A stretch of 64,000 nt of DNA from Solobacterium sp. GTDB taxonomy: Bacteria; Bacillota_I; Bacilli_A; Erysipelotrichales; Erysipelotrichaceae. Below, piece by piece: positions 31,113-42,126 of the stretch (positions are counted from its first letter, which is position 1; every line of letters begins with the position of its first letter). Under the pieces are notes generated by a model. It was given only the letters and a program-made list of their open reading frames with translations, was not told where the DNA came from and did not search any database. The stretch spans positions 19,005 to 83,004 of the forward strand of contig JAFWNG010000033.1 of NCBI GenBank assembly GCA_017510405.1, given 5' to 3'. The translations under genes and the position numbers were made by a program.

Positions 31113-31616
31113 ATGAAAAAGACGCTTCAGAAAGTCAGTCTCATATTTCTCTTTCTACTGGCTGCCTGTTCTGCAGGGAAGGATATGAAAACAGACTGGT
31201 TTACACTGCATGTTCCAAACGGTATTGCCTTTACAGAATCCGATCCCGCCGCGGCGGTGCATGAACTGAAAACAGAGACTGTCCGATATCTGGCGATGGA
31301 TCAGGATAATGCAGTCATGATCTGGTTTGTAAAGGCTTCTCCGTCAGAGATCGAGGAAGTGTACGATATGTTCGCGGTCGTCATGAACAAGATGAAACTG
31401 GAACTGTCGGAGAAAAAAGAGACGGATCCATCCATGGTCTATGTGTATACGCCGGTCATGGCAAACGGGAAGCCGCTTGTCGAACAGTACCAGCTTTACG
31501 CAGTCTGCAGAGACAAAGAAGAATCCTGGCTGGTATCACTCACAGCTCCGTACAGCCGGATCGGCGACAAAGACAAGTTCATCAAAATGCTTTCCACGAT
31601 CGAGTTTGCCGGATAA
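31113..31616 (+). CDS. Hypothetical lipoprotein
   Basis: Signal peptide with LAAC lipobox; ends ML.TIEF. Confidence 0.75.
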   Translation: MKKTLQKVSLIFLFLLAACSAGKDMKTDWFTLHVPNGIAFTESDPAAAVHELKTETVRYLAMDQDNAVMIWFVKASPSEIEEVYDMFAVVMNKMKLELSEKKETDPSMVYVYTPVMANGKPLVEQYQLYAVCRDKEESWLVSLTAPYSRIGDKDKFIKMLSTIEFAG

Positions 31617-35148: not shown

Positions 35149-36489
35149 CTAACTGACCGCGACCCGTTCGGCCGGGTATCTTTTATTGGTGTATTTATGC
35201 AGAGAGACAGATGCATAGGCAAATGTGAGGGCGCCAACGCGTCCGAAGAACATGAACGCGATCAGCAGGACGCGGGAAGCACTTCCCAGTGCCGGTGTGA
35301 TGCCGGTCGTAAGGCCGACCGTTCCAAGCGCCGAAGCGCATTCGAACAGGCAGGACAGGATCGGCAGTCCTTCAATGTCGGAAACAAATATCGCACCTGT
35401 CAGAAGCAGGAAACCGTAAAGAATAAGGATGGTGAACGCGTTGCGGATCTGGTCGGCTTCGATCCTGCGGCCGAAACAGTTGACGTCGTCCGCACGCCTC
35501 ATACAGGCGGAGGAAGCCGCTGCCAGCAGGAATACCGTCGTTACTTTTATACCGCCGGCAGTAGATCCCGGCGCACCGCCGATCAGCATCAGCAGGATCG
35601 TGATCAGCTTGCCGGATTCCGACATGGTACCGTAATCACAGGTGTTGAAGCCGGCAGTACGCGGCGTAACGGAAGCGAACAGCGACATCAGGACGCGCTC
35701 TTTCATCGGATGATCCGCGAACTCGAACAGGAAGAAATAGACTGCCGGAACGAGCAGAAGGACCGCCGTGGACGCCAGGATGATCTTTGTCTGCAGGCGC
35801 AGGCGCTGAAACCGGAACCCGGACCGGAAGAGATCCTGCCAGGTGAGAAAACCGATCCCGCCTGTTACGATCAGAGTCATGATCACGCCGGTAACGAACG
35901 GATCGGACGCGTATGCCGTTAAAGAGGAATAGGCTTCCCGGATGCCGAGCAGATCGAAGCCGGCATTGCAGAACGCGGAAACGGAATGGAATACCGAGAA
36001 CATAAACGCCCGGGAGAACCCGAAGTCCCGGTAAAAAGAAGGAAACAGAAGCAGTGCTCCGAGTGTTTCCGCGATCAGTGTTACTTTCAGTATGAACAGC
36101 GTGAACCGGATGATCCCGCCGAGCGTAGGAGCAGACACCGCGTCCATCATGGTGGTCCGCTGCAGGATGCCGATCCGCTTTCCGGTGACGATCAGAGTGG
36201 CGACGGCAACGGTGATGATGCCGAGGCCGCCAGCCTGTATGAGAAGAAGGATCACGCACTTGCCGAACGACGACCAGTGCGTTGCGGTATTCTGTACGAC
36301 CAGTCCCGTCACGCACGATGCCGAAGCCGAAGTGAACAGCGCGTCCAGAAACGGTGTAGCTTCATGCGAAGCGGAGGCGGCGGGAAGAGAGAGCAGTGCA
36401 GCTCCCGCCATGATCAAAAGAAAGAATCCCAGCAGTATCGACCGGAACGAATTCATTGTGTCCTGGATCCATATTCGTATCTTACGCAT
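35149..36489 (-). CDS. trkH: TrkH/KtrB K+ uptake membrane subunit
   Basis: Four pore loops: SASCVTGL, SAFCNAGF, RTAGF, GTVGLTTG. Confidence 0.93.
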   Translation of the reverse strand: MRKIRIWIQDTMNSFRSILLGFFLLIMAGAALLSLPAASASHEATPFLDALFTSASASCVTGLVVQNTATHWSSFGKCVILLLIQAGGLGIITVAVATLIVTGKRIGILQRTTMMDAVSAPTLGGIIRFTLFILKVTLIAETLGALLLFPSFYRDFGFSRAFMFSVFHSVSAFCNAGFDLLGIREAYSSLTAYASDPFVTGVIMTLIVTGGIGFLTWQDLFRSGFRFQRLRLQTKIILASTAVLLLVPAVYFFLFEFADHPMKERVLMSLFASVTPRTAGFNTCDYGTMSESGKLITILLMLIGGAPGSTAGGIKVTTVFLLAAASSACMRRADDVNCFGRRIEADQIRNAFTILILYGFLLLTGAIFVSDIEGLPILSCLFECASALGTVGLTTGITPALGSASRVLLIAFMFFGRVGALTFAYASVSLHKYTNKRYPAERVAVS

Positions 36490-36548
36490 TGTATTCTCTC
36501 CTGTTCTTATCCAAAGTGTAGAAAATCCGGGATTAAGATAGGGTTAAT

Positions 36549-36579
36549 ATTATGCTTTAACGCATTAAAATCGCATTAA
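36549..36579 (-). promoter_or_regulatory. Candidate trkH promoter with 11-bp-spaced direct repeats
   Basis: CGCATTAA at 36561-36568 and 36572-36579; -10-like CATAAT (minus strand) at 36549-36554; no good -35. Confidence 0.45.
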
Positions 36580-36658
36580 TGCGAAGGGAGAGACTGCCGG
36601 AACATAAATGATGGAAATACAAAAAAAGCCAGTCCTTTCAGACTGACTCATACCTGCG

Positions 36659-36733
36659 GGCGACTAGTGGGACTCGAACCCACGAGTGCTGGAGCCACAA
36701 TCCAGTGTGTTGACCAACTTCACCATAGCCGCC
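36659..36733 (-). tRNA. tRNA-His (GTG), CCA not encoded
   Basis: GGCGGCTATGGTGAAGTTGGTCAACACACTGGATTGTGGCTCCAG...GGTTCGAGTCC...TAGTCGCC; G-1 and C73 identity elements. Confidence 0.95.
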
Positions 36734-36788
36734 GTGAAGCAAGAAGAATAATACAGTAGAAATGAAAAAAATACAAGTATAAAATGGG

Positions 36789-37496
36789 ATGATGATGGAA
36801 AAGACACTGGACCTTGTACTGAATAACGAAACGCTGCACATTACGGTGATCCGGAAAAAGCAGAATAAACGCATGTATCTGCGGCTGAAAAACGGCCAGC
36901 CGGTCATTACCTGTCCGATGCGCTGCAGCGACCGTGCAGTCCTGGAGTTCGTAGGAAAACAGGAAGCGTGGATCCGCCGCCAGCGGGCAAAGGAAGCGGC
37001 CGCAAAGCTGCGGCACCAGGGGGAAAACGGGGAGCGCATGTACTGGCTGGGAAAGCCGTATGACGTATCCGTCGAGCCCGCGTCCCGCAGCCGGATGGTC
37101 TTTGACGGCGAGAAGATCGTATTTTATCTGAAGGAAGATACCGAGGCGGAGCGGAAAGCCGCGTTCCGCAGCGCAGCCGAAAAACAGATGCAGATGTTCA
37201 TCGATCATTACCGCGGCGAGTGGGATGAAAAGATATGCGATGCTTCGCGCATTCCGCATCCGGTGATCAGAATGCGGGATATGAGCAGCCGCTGGGGATC
37301 GTGCTCCAGACACAAAGGGGAGATCCATATGTCGGTGCAGCTGATGCATTATCCGCCGGTGTGCACCAATGCCGTTCTTCTGCACGAGTACGCGCATCTG
37401 CTGGTGTCGGATCACTCTCCGGCGTTCTATGCGGTCGTCCTGCGGCATATGCCGGAATACCGGGACATCCACCGTCTGCTGAAGCAGAACCTGTAG
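36789..37496 (+). CDS. M48/YgjP-like metallopeptidase
   Basis: SRWGSCS, LLHEYAHL...HS..FY. Confidence 0.9.
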   Translation: MMMEKTLDLVLNNETLHITVIRKKQNKRMYLRLKNGQPVITCPMRCSDRAVLEFVGKQEAWIRRQRAKEAAAKLRHQGENGERMYWLGKPYDVSVEPASRSRMVFDGEKIVFYLKEDTEAERKAAFRSAAEKQMQMFIDHYRGEWDEKICDASRIPHPVIRMRDMSSRWGSCSRHKGEIHMSVQLMHYPPVCTNAVLLHEYAHLLVSDHSPAFYAVVLRHMPEYRDIHRLLKQNL

Positions 37497-37589
37497 GGTC
37501 TTGCGGAAAACACATGTATTTATGAAAATGCTTTCATGAAAATTTGTATACGGTTTCACTCTTTTCAGCCAGTTTCCACATATGTTCTA

Positions 37590-37617
37590 TTGAAGAATTC
37601 AGTGAATTCGTTACAAT
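37590..37617 (+). promoter_or_regulatory. Sigma-A promoter with a palindrome in the spacer
   Basis: TTGAAG-16-TACAAT; GAATTCA-G-TGAATTC at 37595-37609. Confidence 0.6.
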
Positions 37618-37653
37618 ATGGGTAGAAATCGACTGTTGGATTAGGAGTTAATA

Positions 37654-37752
37654 ATGATTCGCTTCACGACTGCACCTGGACACAAAGTGAATAGTTTTAC
37701 GGAGAAGAATCTTTTACCTGTGCCTGTCGGACAGTTTCGTAAAGTCATTTAA
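37654..37752 (+). CDS. 32-aa small ORF / possible leader peptide (MIRFTTAPGHKVNSFTEKNLLPVPVGQFRKVI)
   Basis: AGGAG RBS at 37643-37647; own promoter; stop codon overlaps the terminator arm; below the ORF-track cutoff. Confidence 0.55.
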   Translation: MIRFTTAPGHKVNSFTEKNLLPVPVGQFRKVI

Positions 37753-37780
37753 GATGGATACTTTGCGTCCATCTTTTTTG
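37751..37780 (+). terminator. Intrinsic terminator / possible attenuator before the ankyrin-EF-G operon
   Basis: AAGATGGA-9 nt-TCCATCTT-TTTT. Confidence 0.8.
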
Positions 37781-37819
37781 TCACATATTTCTATTTCAAA
37801 TACATAGGAGGAAACAAAT

Positions 37820-38488
37820 ATGGATCAGAAAAATGTTGAATTCTTTGAGGCAGCTGCCAGAGGAGATTTCGCAAAAGTCTGTGCGGAAGCAGCGAAAGGC
37901 GCCGACATCAACGTCAAGAACGGCGACGGACGCACGGCTCTGATGCGGAGTGCGAAGCGCGGCTATACGGAGATCGTCCGCTACCTGCTGGATAACGGCG
38001 CTGATGTAAGAGCCAGAGACAACAACAATAAAACCGCTCTGATGGGCGCTGCAAAGAAAGGACATGTCGATATCTGCCGCATGCTCGTACATGCCGGTGC
38101 GGATGTCAATTCCCACGATAACAGAGGGCGTACGGCACTGATGCGCGCGGCGCTGCTCGGACAGGATGACGTCGTTGAATATCTGGTATCCAAGGGTGCC
38201 GATGTAAACGCAAGAGACGATCAGGGACGTACTGCTCTGATGGAAGCCACCACATCCTATAAGATGTACATCATCCAGTATCTGCTTGATCACGGTGCGG
38301 ATATCAACCAGACAGACAGCCGCGGCTGCACAGCTTTGATGAGAGCTGCCTACATCGGATATCCGGAACTGGTAAAGTTCTTATTGAACAACGGCGCGGA
38401 TAAGGATATAAAAGATTACAGTGGCAACATTGCCATTCATTATGTACGCAAAGAGTGCTTGCAGGATCTGAAAGATATTTTGAAATAA
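37820..38488 (+). CDS. Ankyrin repeat protein (5 full repeats plus caps)
   Basis: Five 33-aa units of the form D..G.TALM.A...G...V..L...GAD. Confidence 0.95.
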   Translation: MDQKNVEFFEAAARGDFAKVCAEAAKGADINVKNGDGRTALMRSAKRGYTEIVRYLLDNGADVRARDNNNKTALMGAAKKGHVDICRMLVHAGADVNSHDNRGRTALMRAALLGQDDVVEYLVSKGADVNARDDQGRTALMEATTSYKMYIIQYLLDHGADINQTDSRGCTALMRAAYIGYPELVKFLLNNGADKDIKDYSGNIAIHYVRKECLQDLKDILK

Positions 38489-38506
38489 GTTGGAGGGAAA
38501 ATTAGT

Positions 38507-40576
38507 ATGCGAGATTATTTGGCGAACGAAGTTCGGAACGTCGTTGTACTGGGACATTCCGGTGCCGGCAAGAGTACTGTAGTGGAAGCCTGCCTCTATG
38601 AGACAAAGGCGATTGAGCGTTTCGGCAAGGCAAATGACGGAACAAGTGCAATGAACTTTGATCCGGAAGAAGGCAAGAGAGGACTGTCCTGCTACTGCCA
38701 TCTGGCACCGGTCGAATGGAAAAACAAGAAGATCAACTTCATTGATACTCCAGGCTACATGGACTATGAAGGTGAAGAAGTTACAGGTCTGGCAGTCGGC
38801 GACAACGCCCTGATCGTCATTGACGGCAAGGAAGGCATCGAAGCCGGCACAGAGCGCGCATGGAAGGAATCTTCCAAGAGAAAGCTCCCGACACTGTTCT
38901 TCATTAATAAAATTGATGATGAGCACGCTCATTTTGATCAGGTAGTATCTGCTCTCCGCGATAAGTTCGGACCGTCGGTCATCCCGTTTGAGATGCCGAT
39001 CATGGAAGGCGGAAAAGTCGTTGGTTCCGTCAATATCCTGCGGAAGAAGGCATGGTACTACAACAACAAGACAGAACCGAAGGAAGTACCGGCCAACCTC
39101 GCTGACCAGGTGGAAGAATACTATGCAATGATCGCCGAGGCGATCGCCAGCACAGACGATGAGCTCATGGAAAAGTTCTTCATGGAAGAACCGTTCGACG
39201 AGCATGAGATCGCCAAGGGACTCCGCATCGGTGTCCGCGGCGGCGACATCCGTCCGATCTACTGCGGCAGCGCTATCAACATGACCGGCATCGTCCGTCT
39301 CATGGACCTCATCACAGAATACTTCCCGAGTTATGCAGAAAAGGGAACGATCAAGGCAAAAGACGCAAAAGGCAACCAGGTCGATATGGAAACGAACGAG
39401 AACGAAGCACTGTCTGTGTTCATTTTCAAGACCAACGTTGACCCATTCGTCGGAAAGATCTCCTATCTGAAGGTCATGTCCGGTGTTCTGAGCAGTGATT
39501 CCCAGGTCTACAACGCCAACAAAGACACAAACGAAAAGATCAGCCAGATCTACGTTATCAACGGCAAATATCAGATCGGTGTCGGCAAACTGTTCACCGG
39601 CGATATCGGCGCAGTTGTAAAGCTTTCCTCTACTGAAACAAACGATACACTGTGCACAAAGGCAAAAGCAGTCACATATGACAAGATCGAATATCCGGAG
39701 CCGATGCTCGGATTCGCGATCCGTCCGAAGACAAAGGCTGACGAAGACAAGCTGACCGGCGGCATCCGCAACATGATGCAGGAAGACGCAACGATCCGTC
39801 TCGTCAACAACCAGGAAACACATGAGCAGGTCCTCTACGGACTGGGCGACCAGCATATCGACCTGATCCTCTCCAAACTCAAGAGCAAGTACAAGATCGA
39901 AGTTGAAACATCCACTCCGACTGTTCAGTACCGTGAAACGATCCGCGGCACAGCATCCGCACAGGGTAAATACAAGAAGCAGAACGGCGGTGCCGGCCAG
40001 TACGGTGACGTCCATGTACGTTTCGAACCGTGCGACAGCGAGCGCATGGAATTCGCCGAGGAAGTTGTCGGCGGTGCTGTTCCGAAGCAGTACTTCCCGC
40101 CGGTAGAGCAGGGTCTGCGCGACTGTATGGAACACGGCGTTCTTGCCGGATTCAAAGTTGTCGGCGTCAAGGCTGTCCTGTTTGACGGTTCCTACCATCC
40201 GGTAGACTCCAAGGAAGTTGCCTTCAAGGAAGCCGCAAGACTTGCCTTCAACAAAGCTATGCCGAATGCGAAGCCGGTCCTGCTGGAACCGATCGGCAAA
40301 GTTACAGTCATCGCTCCGGAAGAATACACCGGTACACTGATGGGCGACTTCCCGAAGAGAAGAGGCCTCATCATGGGTATCACGGCAAACGAAGACGGCG
40401 ACCAGGTCATCGAAGCAGAAGCACCGATGTCCGAGATGCTGACATATGCAACGGAACTGCGTTCCATGACACAGGGCCGCGGCAAATACATTCTGAAGTT
40501 TGACCGCTATGAACCGGCTCCGGGCAATGTCGCTGAAAAGGTCATTGCCGAAGCAAAGGCGAAGAAAGAAGCATAA
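38507..40576 (+). CDS. Elongation factor G paralog (EF-G2/fusA2-like)
   Basis: GHSGAGKS, DTPGYMDY, NKID, KKQNGGAGQYGDV, YHPVDS.E.AF, MTQGRG; switch I RGLS; not in an rpsL-rpsG-fusA-tuf context. Confidence 0.9.
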   Translation: MRDYLANEVRNVVVLGHSGAGKSTVVEACLYETKAIERFGKANDGTSAMNFDPEEGKRGLSCYCHLAPVEWKNKKINFIDTPGYMDYEGEEVTGLAVGDNALIVIDGKEGIEAGTERAWKESSKRKLPTLFFINKIDDEHAHFDQVVSALRDKFGPSVIPFEMPIMEGGKVVGSVNILRKKAWYYNNKTEPKEVPANLADQVEEYYAMIAEAIASTDDELMEKFFMEEPFDEHEIAKGLRIGVRGGDIRPIYCGSAINMTGIVRLMDLITEYFPSYAEKGTIKAKDAKGNQVDMETNENEALSVFIFKTNVDPFVGKISYLKVMSGVLSSDSQVYNANKDTNEKISQIYVINGKYQIGVGKLFTGDIGAVVKLSSTETNDTLCTKAKAVTYDKIEYPEPMLGFAIRPKTKADEDKLTGGIRNMMQEDATIRLVNNQETHEQVLYGLGDQHIDLILSKLKSKYKIEVETSTPTVQYRETIRGTASAQGKYKKQNGGAGQYGDVHVRFEPCDSERMEFAEEVVGGAVPKQYFPPVEQGLRDCMEHGVLAGFKVVGVKAVLFDGSYHPVDSKEVAFKEAARLAFNKAMPNAKPVLLEPIGKVTVIAPEEYTGTLMGDFPKRRGLIMGITANEDGDQVIEAEAPMSEMLTYATELRSMTQGRGKYILKFDRYEPAPGNVAEKVIAEAKAKKEA

Positions 40577-40600
40577 TCTTTCCCGAAACACAGAAGAAAT

Positions 40601-40624
40601 GAAAGACCGGGCAGCCGGTCTTTC
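40601..40624 (+). terminator. Intrinsic terminator after the EF-G paralog
   Basis: GAAAGACCGG-GCAG-CCGGTCTTTC. Confidence 0.75.
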
Positions 40625-40692
40625 ATTATTTTTACGGGTCAGGGCATTCCGTACTGTAGCGGAATGTTTTTTTATCATGGTACTATTGAGGC

Positions 40693-42126
40693 ATGAGGAG
40701 TATAAATCTCAGAAATCATATACAGGCGCTGCAGGTTCTGGAAGACGCGGAAATGGCGGTCTACGCGAAAGCAGAGGCGGCCGAAGCGGGAAAAGTAACG
40801 AAGACGCAGGAAGAACAGGATCTTTCCGCTTTTACCGAGCGTCTTTCCGGATATCTGGAGGAAGGGGAGCGCTACAGTGCGGTTGACTGCTTTTTCCTCG
40901 GCTACTGTATTCCCCGGATTGGCAAGGAATTCGATCTGCTGCGCTTTTCGGAGCATATATGCGTCAATATCGAACTGAAAAACCGCAGTACGGAAGAAAC
41001 GGTCCTGCGGCAGCTGCTGCGGAACCGCTACTATCTGCGTGCGCTCGACCGGACGCTGTACCTGTTTACGTATATCGCCACGGAGGACCGCCTCTATACG
41101 CTGAAAAACGGCGCTCTGGCGGAAGGCTCGTGGGAGGAACTGGCGTCGCTGCTGCGTCTGCCGCCGGAAACGGAAGTGAAAGATCCCGACCTGCTGTTCC
41201 GGCCGGAGCGGTATCTGATCTCACCGGTGTATACGCCGAACCGGTTCCTGACCGGTGAATACTTTCTGACCGGACACCAGGAAGCGATCCGTACGGAGAT
41301 CATGCAGTCGGATGACCGGCTGATCGGCATCGAGGGACGCTCCGGCACCGGCAAGACGCTTCTGCTGTACGATCTGTACCGGCAGTGGATCCGCTCGGGA
41401 ACGTATTCGAAACGGGAAGCTGCCGTCGTGCAGTGCGGCGGCATGCACTACGGACACGAGATCCTTCTGCGGAGCGGGATACGCATCGTGCCCTTTGAAC
41501 AGGCGCAGAATCTGCCGGACGATCCGGCGCTGAAGATCCTGCTGTTTGACGAGATCCAGTATCTCAGCACAGAGCAGATGCAGAAACTGCTGGAACACAT
41601 TGCCGAAACAGGAATACGCGCGGTGTTCGCGTGGGATCCGCTCTGGGCGGGATGCGATCCGGAAGCGGGGAAGACCGTGGCGATGCTGCGGGAACAGGAA
41701 TCCCTGGTGCGCTTCAAACTGACCGCGAAGATCCGGACAAACAGCGATACGGCGGTATTTACCGAATGCCTGTTTGATCTTTCCCGGCACAAGGCGCCGC
41801 TGATGTACGATCATGTGCGCGTCATCTATACGGACAGCGAAGCGGACAGTGCGATGGTGACCGGCCTGTACCGCGCCAAGGGATATCTGCGGGTCACCAG
41901 CGATGACAGCTTCCTGCTGAATTTCCTGGAGGAAGAACCGGACAGCGCCGTGTTCGTGCTGGATGAGAACTTCTGCTACGACGAACAGGGGCATCTTTCC
42001 GCGAAGGACGGCAGCCGCAGCGTGCAGACGCTCCAGCGCCGCATCAGCCGGGTACGCCGCCGGATGTGCGTGATCGTACAGAACAATCCGGAACTCTTTT
42101 CTGTTCTTATATCACTGTTTGCCTGA
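40693..42126 (+). CDS. PD-(D/E)xK-type nuclease fused to P-loop helicase-like domain (DUF2075/Nhi-like)
   Basis: GY.IP.IGKEFDLLRF...VNIELK; Walker A GRSGTGKT; Walker B LLFDEIQ; FKLTAKIRTN; C-terminal SRVRRRMCVIVQNN. Confidence 0.7.
   Translation: MRSINLRNHIQALQVLEDAEMAVYAKAEAAEAGKVTKTQEEQDLSAFTERLSGYLEEGERYSAVDCFFLGYCIPRIGKEFDLLRFSEHICVNIELKNRSTEETVLRQLLRNRYYLRALDRTLYLFTYIATEDRLYTLKNGALAEGSWEELASLLRLPPETEVKDPDLLFRPERYLISPVYTPNRFLTGEYFLTGHQEAIRTEIMQSDDRLIGIEGRSGTGKTLLLYDLYRQWIRSGTYSKREAAVVQCGGMHYGHEILLRSGIRIVPFEQAQNLPDDPALKILLFDEIQYLSTEQMQKLLEHIAETGIRAVFAWDPLWAGCDPEAGKTVAMLREQESLVRFKLTAKIRTNSDTAVFTECLFDLSRHKAPLMYDHVRVIYTDSEADSAMVTGLYRAKGYLRVTSDDSFLLNFLEEEPDSAVFVLDENFCYDEQGHLSAKDGSRSVQTLQRRISRVRRRMCVIVQNNPELFSVLISLFA

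Follow-up and report, generated by a model that had tools for sequence, protein, structure and literature searches.

A short open reading frame ending on an intrinsic terminator: a putative ribosome-occlusion attenuator for an ankyrin/EF-G2 operon in Erysipelotrichaceae

In the pyrBI (pyrL) and pyrE systems, a translating ribosome antagonizes an intrinsic terminator directly, without an antiterminator, and U-rich tracts slow the polymerase; in Escherichia coli tnaC-tnaA, a ribosome arrested at the leader stop codon prevents transcription termination. In rph-pyrE, how far the rph stop codon lies from the attenuator determines pyrE expression (PMC2784333). Termination at the E. coli terminator tR2 fell from ~90% to <10% when a stop codon was shifted from 28 to 5 bp ahead of it, and was restored when there was no translation (Li et al., 2016, PMC4824070). 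The msrDL-msrD attenuator of streptococcal macrolide resistance has an intrinsic terminator that is blocked by a ribosome held at a UAA codon, and the ABC-F factor thereby induced then damps its own induction (PMC10314930). Here, a leader is described that precedes a gene for an ankyrin-repeat protein and a gene for a paralog of elongation factor G (EF-G2) in a 64,000-nucleotide (nt) stretch of Solobacterium sp. DNA (contig JAFWNG010000033.1, positions 19,005 to 83,004), hereafter called the window, to whose first letter all coordinates refer unless another contig is named. The leader contains a 32-codon open reading frame (ORF) whose stop codon lies on the 5′ arm of an intrinsic terminator, and is proposed, with a probability of about 0.7, to be a translation-dependent transcription attenuator of the direct-occlusion type for the ankyrin/EF-G2 operon. 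The sequences show the anatomy of the leader and its conservation, the lack of peptide constraint and of an antiterminator, and the spacing; that occlusion and pausing take place, which way regulation runs and what the physiological signal is are inferred from them.

Compared with the systems above, the leader is pyrBI/pyrE-like in its predicted architecture and could be msrDL-msrD-like in its logic. As in pyrBI and pyrE, the ORF ends at or near the hairpin, with U-tracts upstream and no antiterminator fold; the difference is that those systems control pyrimidine genes and read UTP, whereas the present leader stands before genes for an ankyrin protein and an EF-G paralog, in a member of the Bacillota with a NusG of the pro-pausing type, and has a putative cre-like operator. 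With msrDL, the leader would share a ribosome at the stop codon covering the terminator and a translation factor as the induced product, and the msrDL leader has a TTNTTT pause site; msrDL, however, is 6 codons long, prefers UAA and encodes a conserved peptide that is drug-specific, in contrast to ~31 codons, an almost free peptide and any stop codon here. The construct of PMC4824070 likewise has a stop codon a few bp before a hairpin that lets the ribosome suppress termination, but is synthetic and is placed at the end of a long gene. The tnaC leader differs in that its arrested ribosome blocks Rho loading and not an intrinsic hairpin, and requires a conserved peptide and free tryptophan. The trp and his attenuators likewise have a leader peptide and a terminator, and in them, too, the ribosome races the polymerase, but they work through alternative 2:3 and 3:4 pairings and tandem regulatory codons, neither of which is present here. 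Literature searches returned no description of the element, of the ankyrin/EF-G pairing or of such an operon in Erysipelotrichaceae, and the element appears to be undescribed in the papers covered.

Layout of the leader and its conservation

The features of the leader are as follows, all on the + strand.

37590–37617, +, sigma-70-type promoter: −35 element TTGAAG (37590–37595), 16-nt spacer, −10 element TACAAT (37612–37617); 9 of 12 matches
37643–37647, +, leader Shine-Dalgarno (SD) sequence AGGAG, 6 nt 5′ of the ATG at 37654
37654–37752, +, leader ORF: 32 codons plus TAA (37750–37752); product MIRFTTAPGHKVNSFTEKNLLPVPVGQFRKVI
37712–37715, +, internal T4 tract, at −39 to −36 from the hairpin base; candidate RNA polymerase pause signal
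37751–37781, +, intrinsic terminator: 9-bp stem AAGATGGAT / GTCCATCTT, 7-nt loop and T-tract

An earlier note on this DNA had described the promoter, the AGGAG ribosome-binding site, the 32-codon ORF and the TAA on the 5′ arm of the terminator, and all of these were located where it had placed them. It had also called the ORF unannotated; automatic gene callers do, however, list the exact 32-amino-acid product in public assemblies, as an unnamed or hypothetical protein. A promoter scan predicts transcription to start at ~37624. The stem of the terminator hairpin (37751–37775) opens with both A's of the TAA. The hairpin leads into a T6 tract (37774–37779) and has a predicted stability of −12 kcal/mol (z = −4.0 relative to shuffles), with an equally good fold occurring in 1 of 200 shuffles.

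The same layout was found across the family. Among 92 non-identical leaders (upstream regions) sampled family-wide from Erysipelotrichaceae, 85 contain an SD-preceded ORF that begins with ATG, has 18–37 codons (median 31) and stops within −14 to +14 nt of the hairpin base; conservation of the ORF upstream of orthologous operons, which the earlier note had named as a check on its proposal, is thus observed. The first in-frame stop codon lies at −2 to +1 of the hairpin base in 54 of these 85 leaders, and at exactly −1, as in the window, in 44, while the two alternative frames over the same stretches contain ~2.2 stops each and stay open in no more than 5 and 10 of these leaders, respectively. 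The relatives have GGAG- or GAGG-type SD sequences 4–11 nt 5′ of the leader ATG, and keep a TACAAT or TAAAAT −10 element at an equal distance from that ATG. The stem is paired at all positions in 56 relatives, with an A-T/G-C/G-T exchange at one position. In genera whose ankyrin proteins are 48–60% identical, the hairpins (e.g., AACTGGAATG...CGTTCCAGTT and GACACAAAG...CTTTGTGTC) and the peptides are unrelated, and the stop codon still coincides with the foot, 5′ arm or loop of the hairpin. Because the layout of an ORF on a terminator recurs in 85 of 92 leaders despite differing peptide and hairpin sequences, it is considered to exceed chance. The leader has been lost in a few lineages (L061, L083 and L143). 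The leader stop codons comprise 43 TAA, 23 TGA and 19 TAG.

In about one-tenth of the leaders, the ORF enters the hairpin by 3–4 codons (FKMD, FKVD or FRMDI before the stop) and ends in the loop (L015, L021, L022, L040, L044–L046, L050, L065 and L082). In at least one case, L082 compared with L081, the loop-ending ORF reflects a TAG-to-AAG substitution and not a frameshift.

A strict scan of the window's own genome for small ORFs ending on a terminator before a gene returned only this locus, rpmH-rnpA and one false match, so that rpmH-rnpA is the sole other locus of the genome with this geometry. In rpmH-rnpA (contig C23, − strand, 31187–31366), the stop codon of rpmH, encoding ribosomal protein L34, lies 3 nt before a hairpin preceding a 114-codon gene, which we take from its position to be rnpA. 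The match on contig C41 was rejected, consisting of a gene tail followed by an ordinary terminator and promoter.

Peptide, RNA fold and spacing of ribosome and polymerase

The frame of the leader is conserved to a much greater extent than its product. In 13 close pairs of equal ORF length, synonymous (pS) and nonsynonymous (pN) divergence of the leader were 0.26 and 0.17, respectively (pN/pS ~0.67), compared with 0.46 and 0.03 (pN/pS ~0.07) for the adjacent ankyrin gene, so that synonymous sites change less in the leader than in the ankyrin gene. With the peptide being nearly free and the leader synonymous sites being constrained, it appears that translation is conserved and its product is not. 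Of the first 26 residues of the window peptide, 15 are different in the peptide of a species with a 96%-identical ankyrin protein. A weak peptide pattern in the closer genera, VFxVQN...VLFxGV...F, is largely of nucleotide-level origin, and its VFxV part is absent from the window peptide. No arrest-peptide or C-terminal motif common to the leaders of the whole family was found, and searches of Pfam and NCBIfam returned no family, including leader-peptide families, for the window peptide or for the peptides of four more typical relatives. The leader is rich in Val, Phe and Gly codons, but none of its codons is repeated in a tandem run. Immediately before the stop, the sense codon is TTT in 42 leaders and TTC in one, compared with a TTT:TTC ratio of 106:61 for internal Phe codons; since the codon is nearly always TTT, the frequent final Phe is interpreted as a nucleotide-level signal.

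A competing RNA structure was also looked for. Duplexes between the 5′ arm and the upstream leader gave no indication of an antiterminator, with a mean z of +0.39 relative to shuffled leaders and 1% of leaders below −2, and the best such duplex averages −5.1 kcal/mol in the family's leaders versus −10.6 kcal/mol for the hairpin. The fold of the whole window leader is no stabler than those of shuffles (z = −0.45), and an Rfam search of 36000–41000 with E values up to 10 gave no match within the leader (37590–37820). Two further readings of the hairpin region were rejected: a second ORF starting from an ATG or GTG within the 5′ arm is a by-product of the hairpin sequence, and a prfB-like +1 shift at UUU-UAA-G through the hairpin is attributed to chance, the +1 frame of the relatives having no consistent end.

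The earlier note had stated that only about 40 nt separate the leader from the ankyrin gene, with no convincing second promoter, and this description holds: the ankyrin ATG (37820) lies ~40 nt 3′ of the terminator T-tract, and a scan limited to sigma-70-like promoters detected no promoter-like site between the terminator and the ankyrin gene. A hidden promoter at 37761–37789 (TTGCGT, 17-nt spacer, CATATT; 7 of 12 matches) was rejected as weak and unconserved. Across the family, the spacer between the terminator and the ankyrin gene measures 26–105 nt (median 40) and has no conserved −35 or −10 element. Between the terminator and the ankyrin SD, 40 of the 92 leaders contain a TTTGA (often GTTTGA) motif 20–28 nt 5′ of the ankyrin ATG; the motif, whose window variant is ATTTCAAA at 37793–37800, is too near the SD for a promoter.

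The stop codon's position was also compared with the geometry of coupled transcription and translation. With the release point estimated as the end of the stem plus 7, and the P-site codon taken with the A site occupied by the stop codon, the P-site codon and the estimated release point lie 35 nt apart in the window, and their separation has a median of 35 nt and an interquartile range of 33–36 nt in the family. In E. coli structures, the distance from the P site to the active site is 34 nt in the collided expressome and 38 nt in the NusG-coupled complex. Because the 35-nt spacing matches that of the collided complex, the stop codon is suggested to sit where a caught-up ribosome would press on RNA polymerase at the termination point.

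T-tracts are distributed unevenly along the leaders. Tracts of at least four T's peak at −5 to −1 (64–68% of leaders), −39 to −36 (30–35%) and −84 to −70 (13–23%) from the hairpin base, against a background of 1–5%, and in distant genera a T-tract lies within 20 nt before the hairpin in 19 of 26 leaders, compared with 1–4 in other 20-nt windows. In leaders L009–L171, such tracts stand at about −78, −38 and −3, in addition to the U-tract (+28), with 35 nt as the commonest spacing, which equals the distance from the P site to the active site of a collided RNA polymerase. This spacing could be an inherited spacing of Phe codons or a device holding ribosome and polymerase in register. NusG of Bacillus subtilis and many other bacteria reads TTNTTT in the non-template strand at −11 to −6, and the resulting pauses serve the tlrB, vmlR and msrD leaders (PMC10314930 for msrD); the NusG of the window's own genome keeps the RNTPGV motif with N81 and T82, the residues by which TTNTTT is read. 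The full TTNTTT was rejected as an explanation of the T-tracts, being present at the hairpin-proximal site in only ~15% of the leaders.

On these grounds, transcription from ~37624 would by default end at the terminator (37751–37781), giving a leader RNA of ~158 nt. The leader would be translated from the ATG at 37654, and a ribosome at the last codons or at the TAA would hold the whole 5′ arm of the hairpin within its mRNA channel; with this ribosome in place while the polymerase transcribes the 3′ arm and the U-tract, the hairpin would be blocked, and read-through into the ankyrin and EF-G2 genes would follow. No alternative RNA structure would be needed for this, and the identity of the peptide would be irrelevant. 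The quantity sensed would be kinetic, namely whether the ribosome keeps up with the polymerase to the end of the ~31-codon frame, together with its dwell there. The T-tracts, chiefly the one just 5′ of the hairpin, are likely to make RNA polymerase pause and so to let the ribosome catch up, with the NusG of the lineage being of the pro-pausing type, and the cre-like operator at or near the promoter would add carbon-status control as another layer. The claim of the earlier note that a ribosome at the stop codon masks the 5′ arm of the terminator is supported by the conserved frame and stop position, the free peptide, the lack of a competing fold and of a second promoter, the 35-nt spacing and the precedent of msrDL-msrD.

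Several observations weigh against occlusion by a leader ribosome or lower the force of the evidence for it. Bacillota are reported to transcribe ahead of translation, and, if this applies here, the first ribosome may seldom arrive in time without strong pausing. As for pausing, most leaders have plain T4–T6 tracts and not the full TTNTTT at the hairpin-proximal site, and the window has only TTT, and no T4, next to the leader stop codon; pausing is therefore only probable. The 92 leaders are related by descent, so that the counts overstate independence. The reference spacing was taken from structures of E. coli complexes, and the release point has been estimated. In addition, the Solobacterium- and Bulleidia-like genera conserve a hairpin of the form AAGRTGGA...TCCAYCTT, as well as the weak peptide pattern, beyond what pure occlusion needs.

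The ankyrin/EF-G2 operon and its possible control by carbon status

The operon and the upstream operator comprise the following features.

37523–37536, strand not assigned, cre-like (LacI/CcpA-type) 14-bp pseudo-palindrome TGAAAATGCTTTCA, centred ~95 nt 5′ of the predicted transcription start; putative operator
37806–37811, +, ankyrin-gene SD AGGAGG, strong; AGGAGG in 76 of 92 relatives
37820–38488, +, ankyrin-repeat protein, 222 amino acids; Pfam Ank families, E ~1e-48
38507–40576, +, EF-G paralog (EF-G2), 689 amino acids, starting 18 nt after the ankyrin gene; NF009381, 860.9 bits, above the cut-off
40598–40627, +, operon-closing terminator, 13 bp

The ankyrin gene lies directly 5′ of the EF-G paralog in 29 of 29 and again 29 of 29 Erysipelotrichaceae loci (two samples), down to 48% ankyrin identity, and an ankyrin orthologue is present in all 24 of the same-genus genomes sampled. 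In a neighbouring family of the same order (L160–L170), EF-G2-like genes with 43–46% identity have a plain promoter and SD (AAAGGAGCGTGAT), and neither an ankyrin gene nor a leader. Judging from these loci, the leader is one that travels with the ankyrin gene. A tRNA gene (36659–36732, − strand; Rfam, 61 bits) lies farther upstream, between the Trk operon and a YgjP-like metallopeptidase gene.

The EF-G paralog scores below the cut-off of TIGR00484 (619 bits), far under that of the tet_protect model (301 versus 775 bits) and under that of the EFG2_Bacteroid model (579 versus 1000 bits), the last indicating a different subfamily. The canonical fusA is located on another contig of the same genome. 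Alignment showed DTPGY and the switch I sequence RGLSCY in the paralog, compared with DTPGH and RGITIT in the EF-G encoded by this fusA. With DTPGY in place of DTPGH, the paralog therefore has a Tyr instead of the catalytic His and is probably GTPase-deficient.

A parallel exists in Bacteroides, in which fusA2 (EF-G2) is described as supporting GTP-independent translation and as being strongly induced on carbon limitation, and is controlled by the transcription factor BT4338/Cur (PMC10294740). The two share an alternative EF-G and a link to carbon, which is represented here by an EF-G paralog without the catalytic His and by the cre-like sites at many of its promoters. They differ in that no ankyrin partner and no leader ORF are mentioned for fusA2 in PMC10294740 and in that the proteins belong to different EF-G subfamilies.

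The scan for cre-like sites used a core pattern, TGNNARCGNWWWCA, with the published consensus, TGWAANCGNTNWCA, being used only for the genome count. The site in the window has one mismatch to the core pattern, a central TG for CG. A site with at most one mismatch lies upstream of 46 of the 85 leaders (e.g., L045, L058 and L148), with a perfect site at 15, compared with 1.5% of shuffles; it overlaps the −10 element (TGATAGCGTTTACAAT) or the −35 element in many other genera, and lies ~95 nt upstream in the genus of the window. Genome-wide, 22 copies of the published consensus were counted, versus 5.9 expected (~four-fold). The best CcpA-like LacI-family protein of the genome scores 237 bits, below the equivalog cut-off of 442. 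Overall, the sites suggest carbon-status control at the operon promoter, to which a terminator gated by the ribosome would add a second layer; they would fit, without proving, an operon meant for energy-poor states.

Alternative readings and significance

The signal to which the proposed attenuator would respond can be refined further, in a manner that we offer only as a tentative suggestion. The leader might be a kinetic sensor comparing the pace of the first ribosome with that of the polymerase, with U-tracts ~35 nt apart keeping the two in register; combined with the cre-like operator, it might form an AND gate that switches on the His-less EF-G2 and the ankyrin protein only when carbon and nucleotide energy are low and the ribosome catches up with a slow polymerase, or alternatively when post-termination ribosomes linger. 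If true, the leader would connect a spare translocase to a naturally occurring gauge of ribosome recycling or of transcription-translation coupling.

Dwell of the ribosome at the stop codon might alternatively be the signal itself, as the earlier note had proposed. Release and recycling would ordinarily be quick enough for the hairpin to fold during a pause of RNA polymerase on the U-tract. Slow termination or slow recycling by RRF and EF-G, owing to factor shortage or fusidic acid, would leave a lingering ribosome and permit read-through, and the ankyrin/EF-G2 products would restore recycling in a homeostatic loop. Some EF-G paralogs, such as those of Borrelia and mitochondria, are recycling specialists, and the operon encodes an EF-G paralog. 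A stop codon at −2 to +1 in 54 of 85 leaders, together with an ORF that almost never extends beyond the hairpin, is expected if the ribosome must park, and the 35-nt spacing sets a parked ribosome against the polymerase at the release point. The feedback logic also has a precedent, in that msrD is induced by a ribosome held at UAA and lowers its own induction. On the other hand, there is no bias toward a stop codon or release factor; no C-terminal arrest motif is common to the family, the final Phe being a TTT-type nucleotide signal; and stop codons 6–14 nt 5′ of the hairpin or in the loop are tolerated. Moreover, with the catalytic His missing from EF-G2, a role in GTP-driven ribosome splitting is not obvious, and the sequences hold nothing that singles out a recycling or fusidic-acid signal. 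We consider this loop rather unlikely; a pyrBI/pyrE-type sensor of the closeness of the lead ribosome and the polymerase would suit the data at least as well as a recycling or fusidic-acid signal, and would have the operon on when the ribosome keeps pace, for example with a polymerase slowed by low NTP or by long pauses.

A drug-sensing arrest leader of the erm, msrD, vmlR, hflXr or tet(M) type, in which an antibiotic stalls the ribosome on a specific peptide to induce a ribosome-protection module, would be in keeping with a downstream gene of the EF-G/Tet(M) superfamily (tet_protect, 301 bits against a cut-off of 775) and with TTNTTT-type tracts of the kind that the tlrB, vmlR and msrD leaders also use. 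The VFxV motif of the closer genera, which in our view resembles the IFVI motif of ErmCL, points in the same direction. Yet the peptide evolves near-neutrally, has no family-wide motif and in the window does not contain VFxV; no leader-peptide family was matched; and the operon is core to the whole family and is not mobile. Any stop codon is used, a family-wide C-terminal motif is lacking, stops away from the hairpin foot are tolerated, and a stall at internal motifs would leave the terminator hairpin free, with no antiterminator to favour; for these reasons, this explanation is very improbable.

Similarly slight odds are assigned to a trans-acting factor that would bind the hairpin/T-tract region and modulate termination, with the ORF being secondary; this could be a small RNA or a protein, such as the ankyrin protein, EF-G2 or some ribosomal protein. 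Such a factor would account for the retention of AAGRTGGA...TCCAYCTT across several genera beyond what an ordinary terminator shows, for the constrained synonymous sites of the leader and for the TTTGA motif in 40 of the 92 leaders, but distant genera keep the layout with entirely different hairpins, and the conservation of frame and stop position would be left unexplained. That there is no regulator at all, the ORF being an independent small gene closed by a terminator that belongs to it and the ankyrin and EF-G2 genes being expressed from an unrecognised promoter or by constitutive leak, is hardly credible: gene callers do list the ORF as a hypothetical protein and only sigma-70-like promoters could be scanned for, but the peptide is almost without amino-acid constraint, the spacer of 26–105 nt has no conserved −35 or −10 element, and the leader, the ankyrin gene and the EF-G2 gene stay together family-wide.

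Attenuation by a ribosome that directly occludes the terminator, if it operates here, would extend to the translation machinery itself a mode of control so far described for one drug-resistance factor and for pyrimidine genes. The element would be a natural, sequence-simple reporter of ribosome-polymerase closeness in Bacillota, in which coupling is debated. Paralogs of the EF-G2 type are widespread and poorly understood; across a family of gut, rumen and oral bacteria, one of them is tied to an ankyrin partner and to what would be a ribosome-operated switch, and the leader may thus provide a concrete handle on when the ankyrin/EF-G2 pair is needed.

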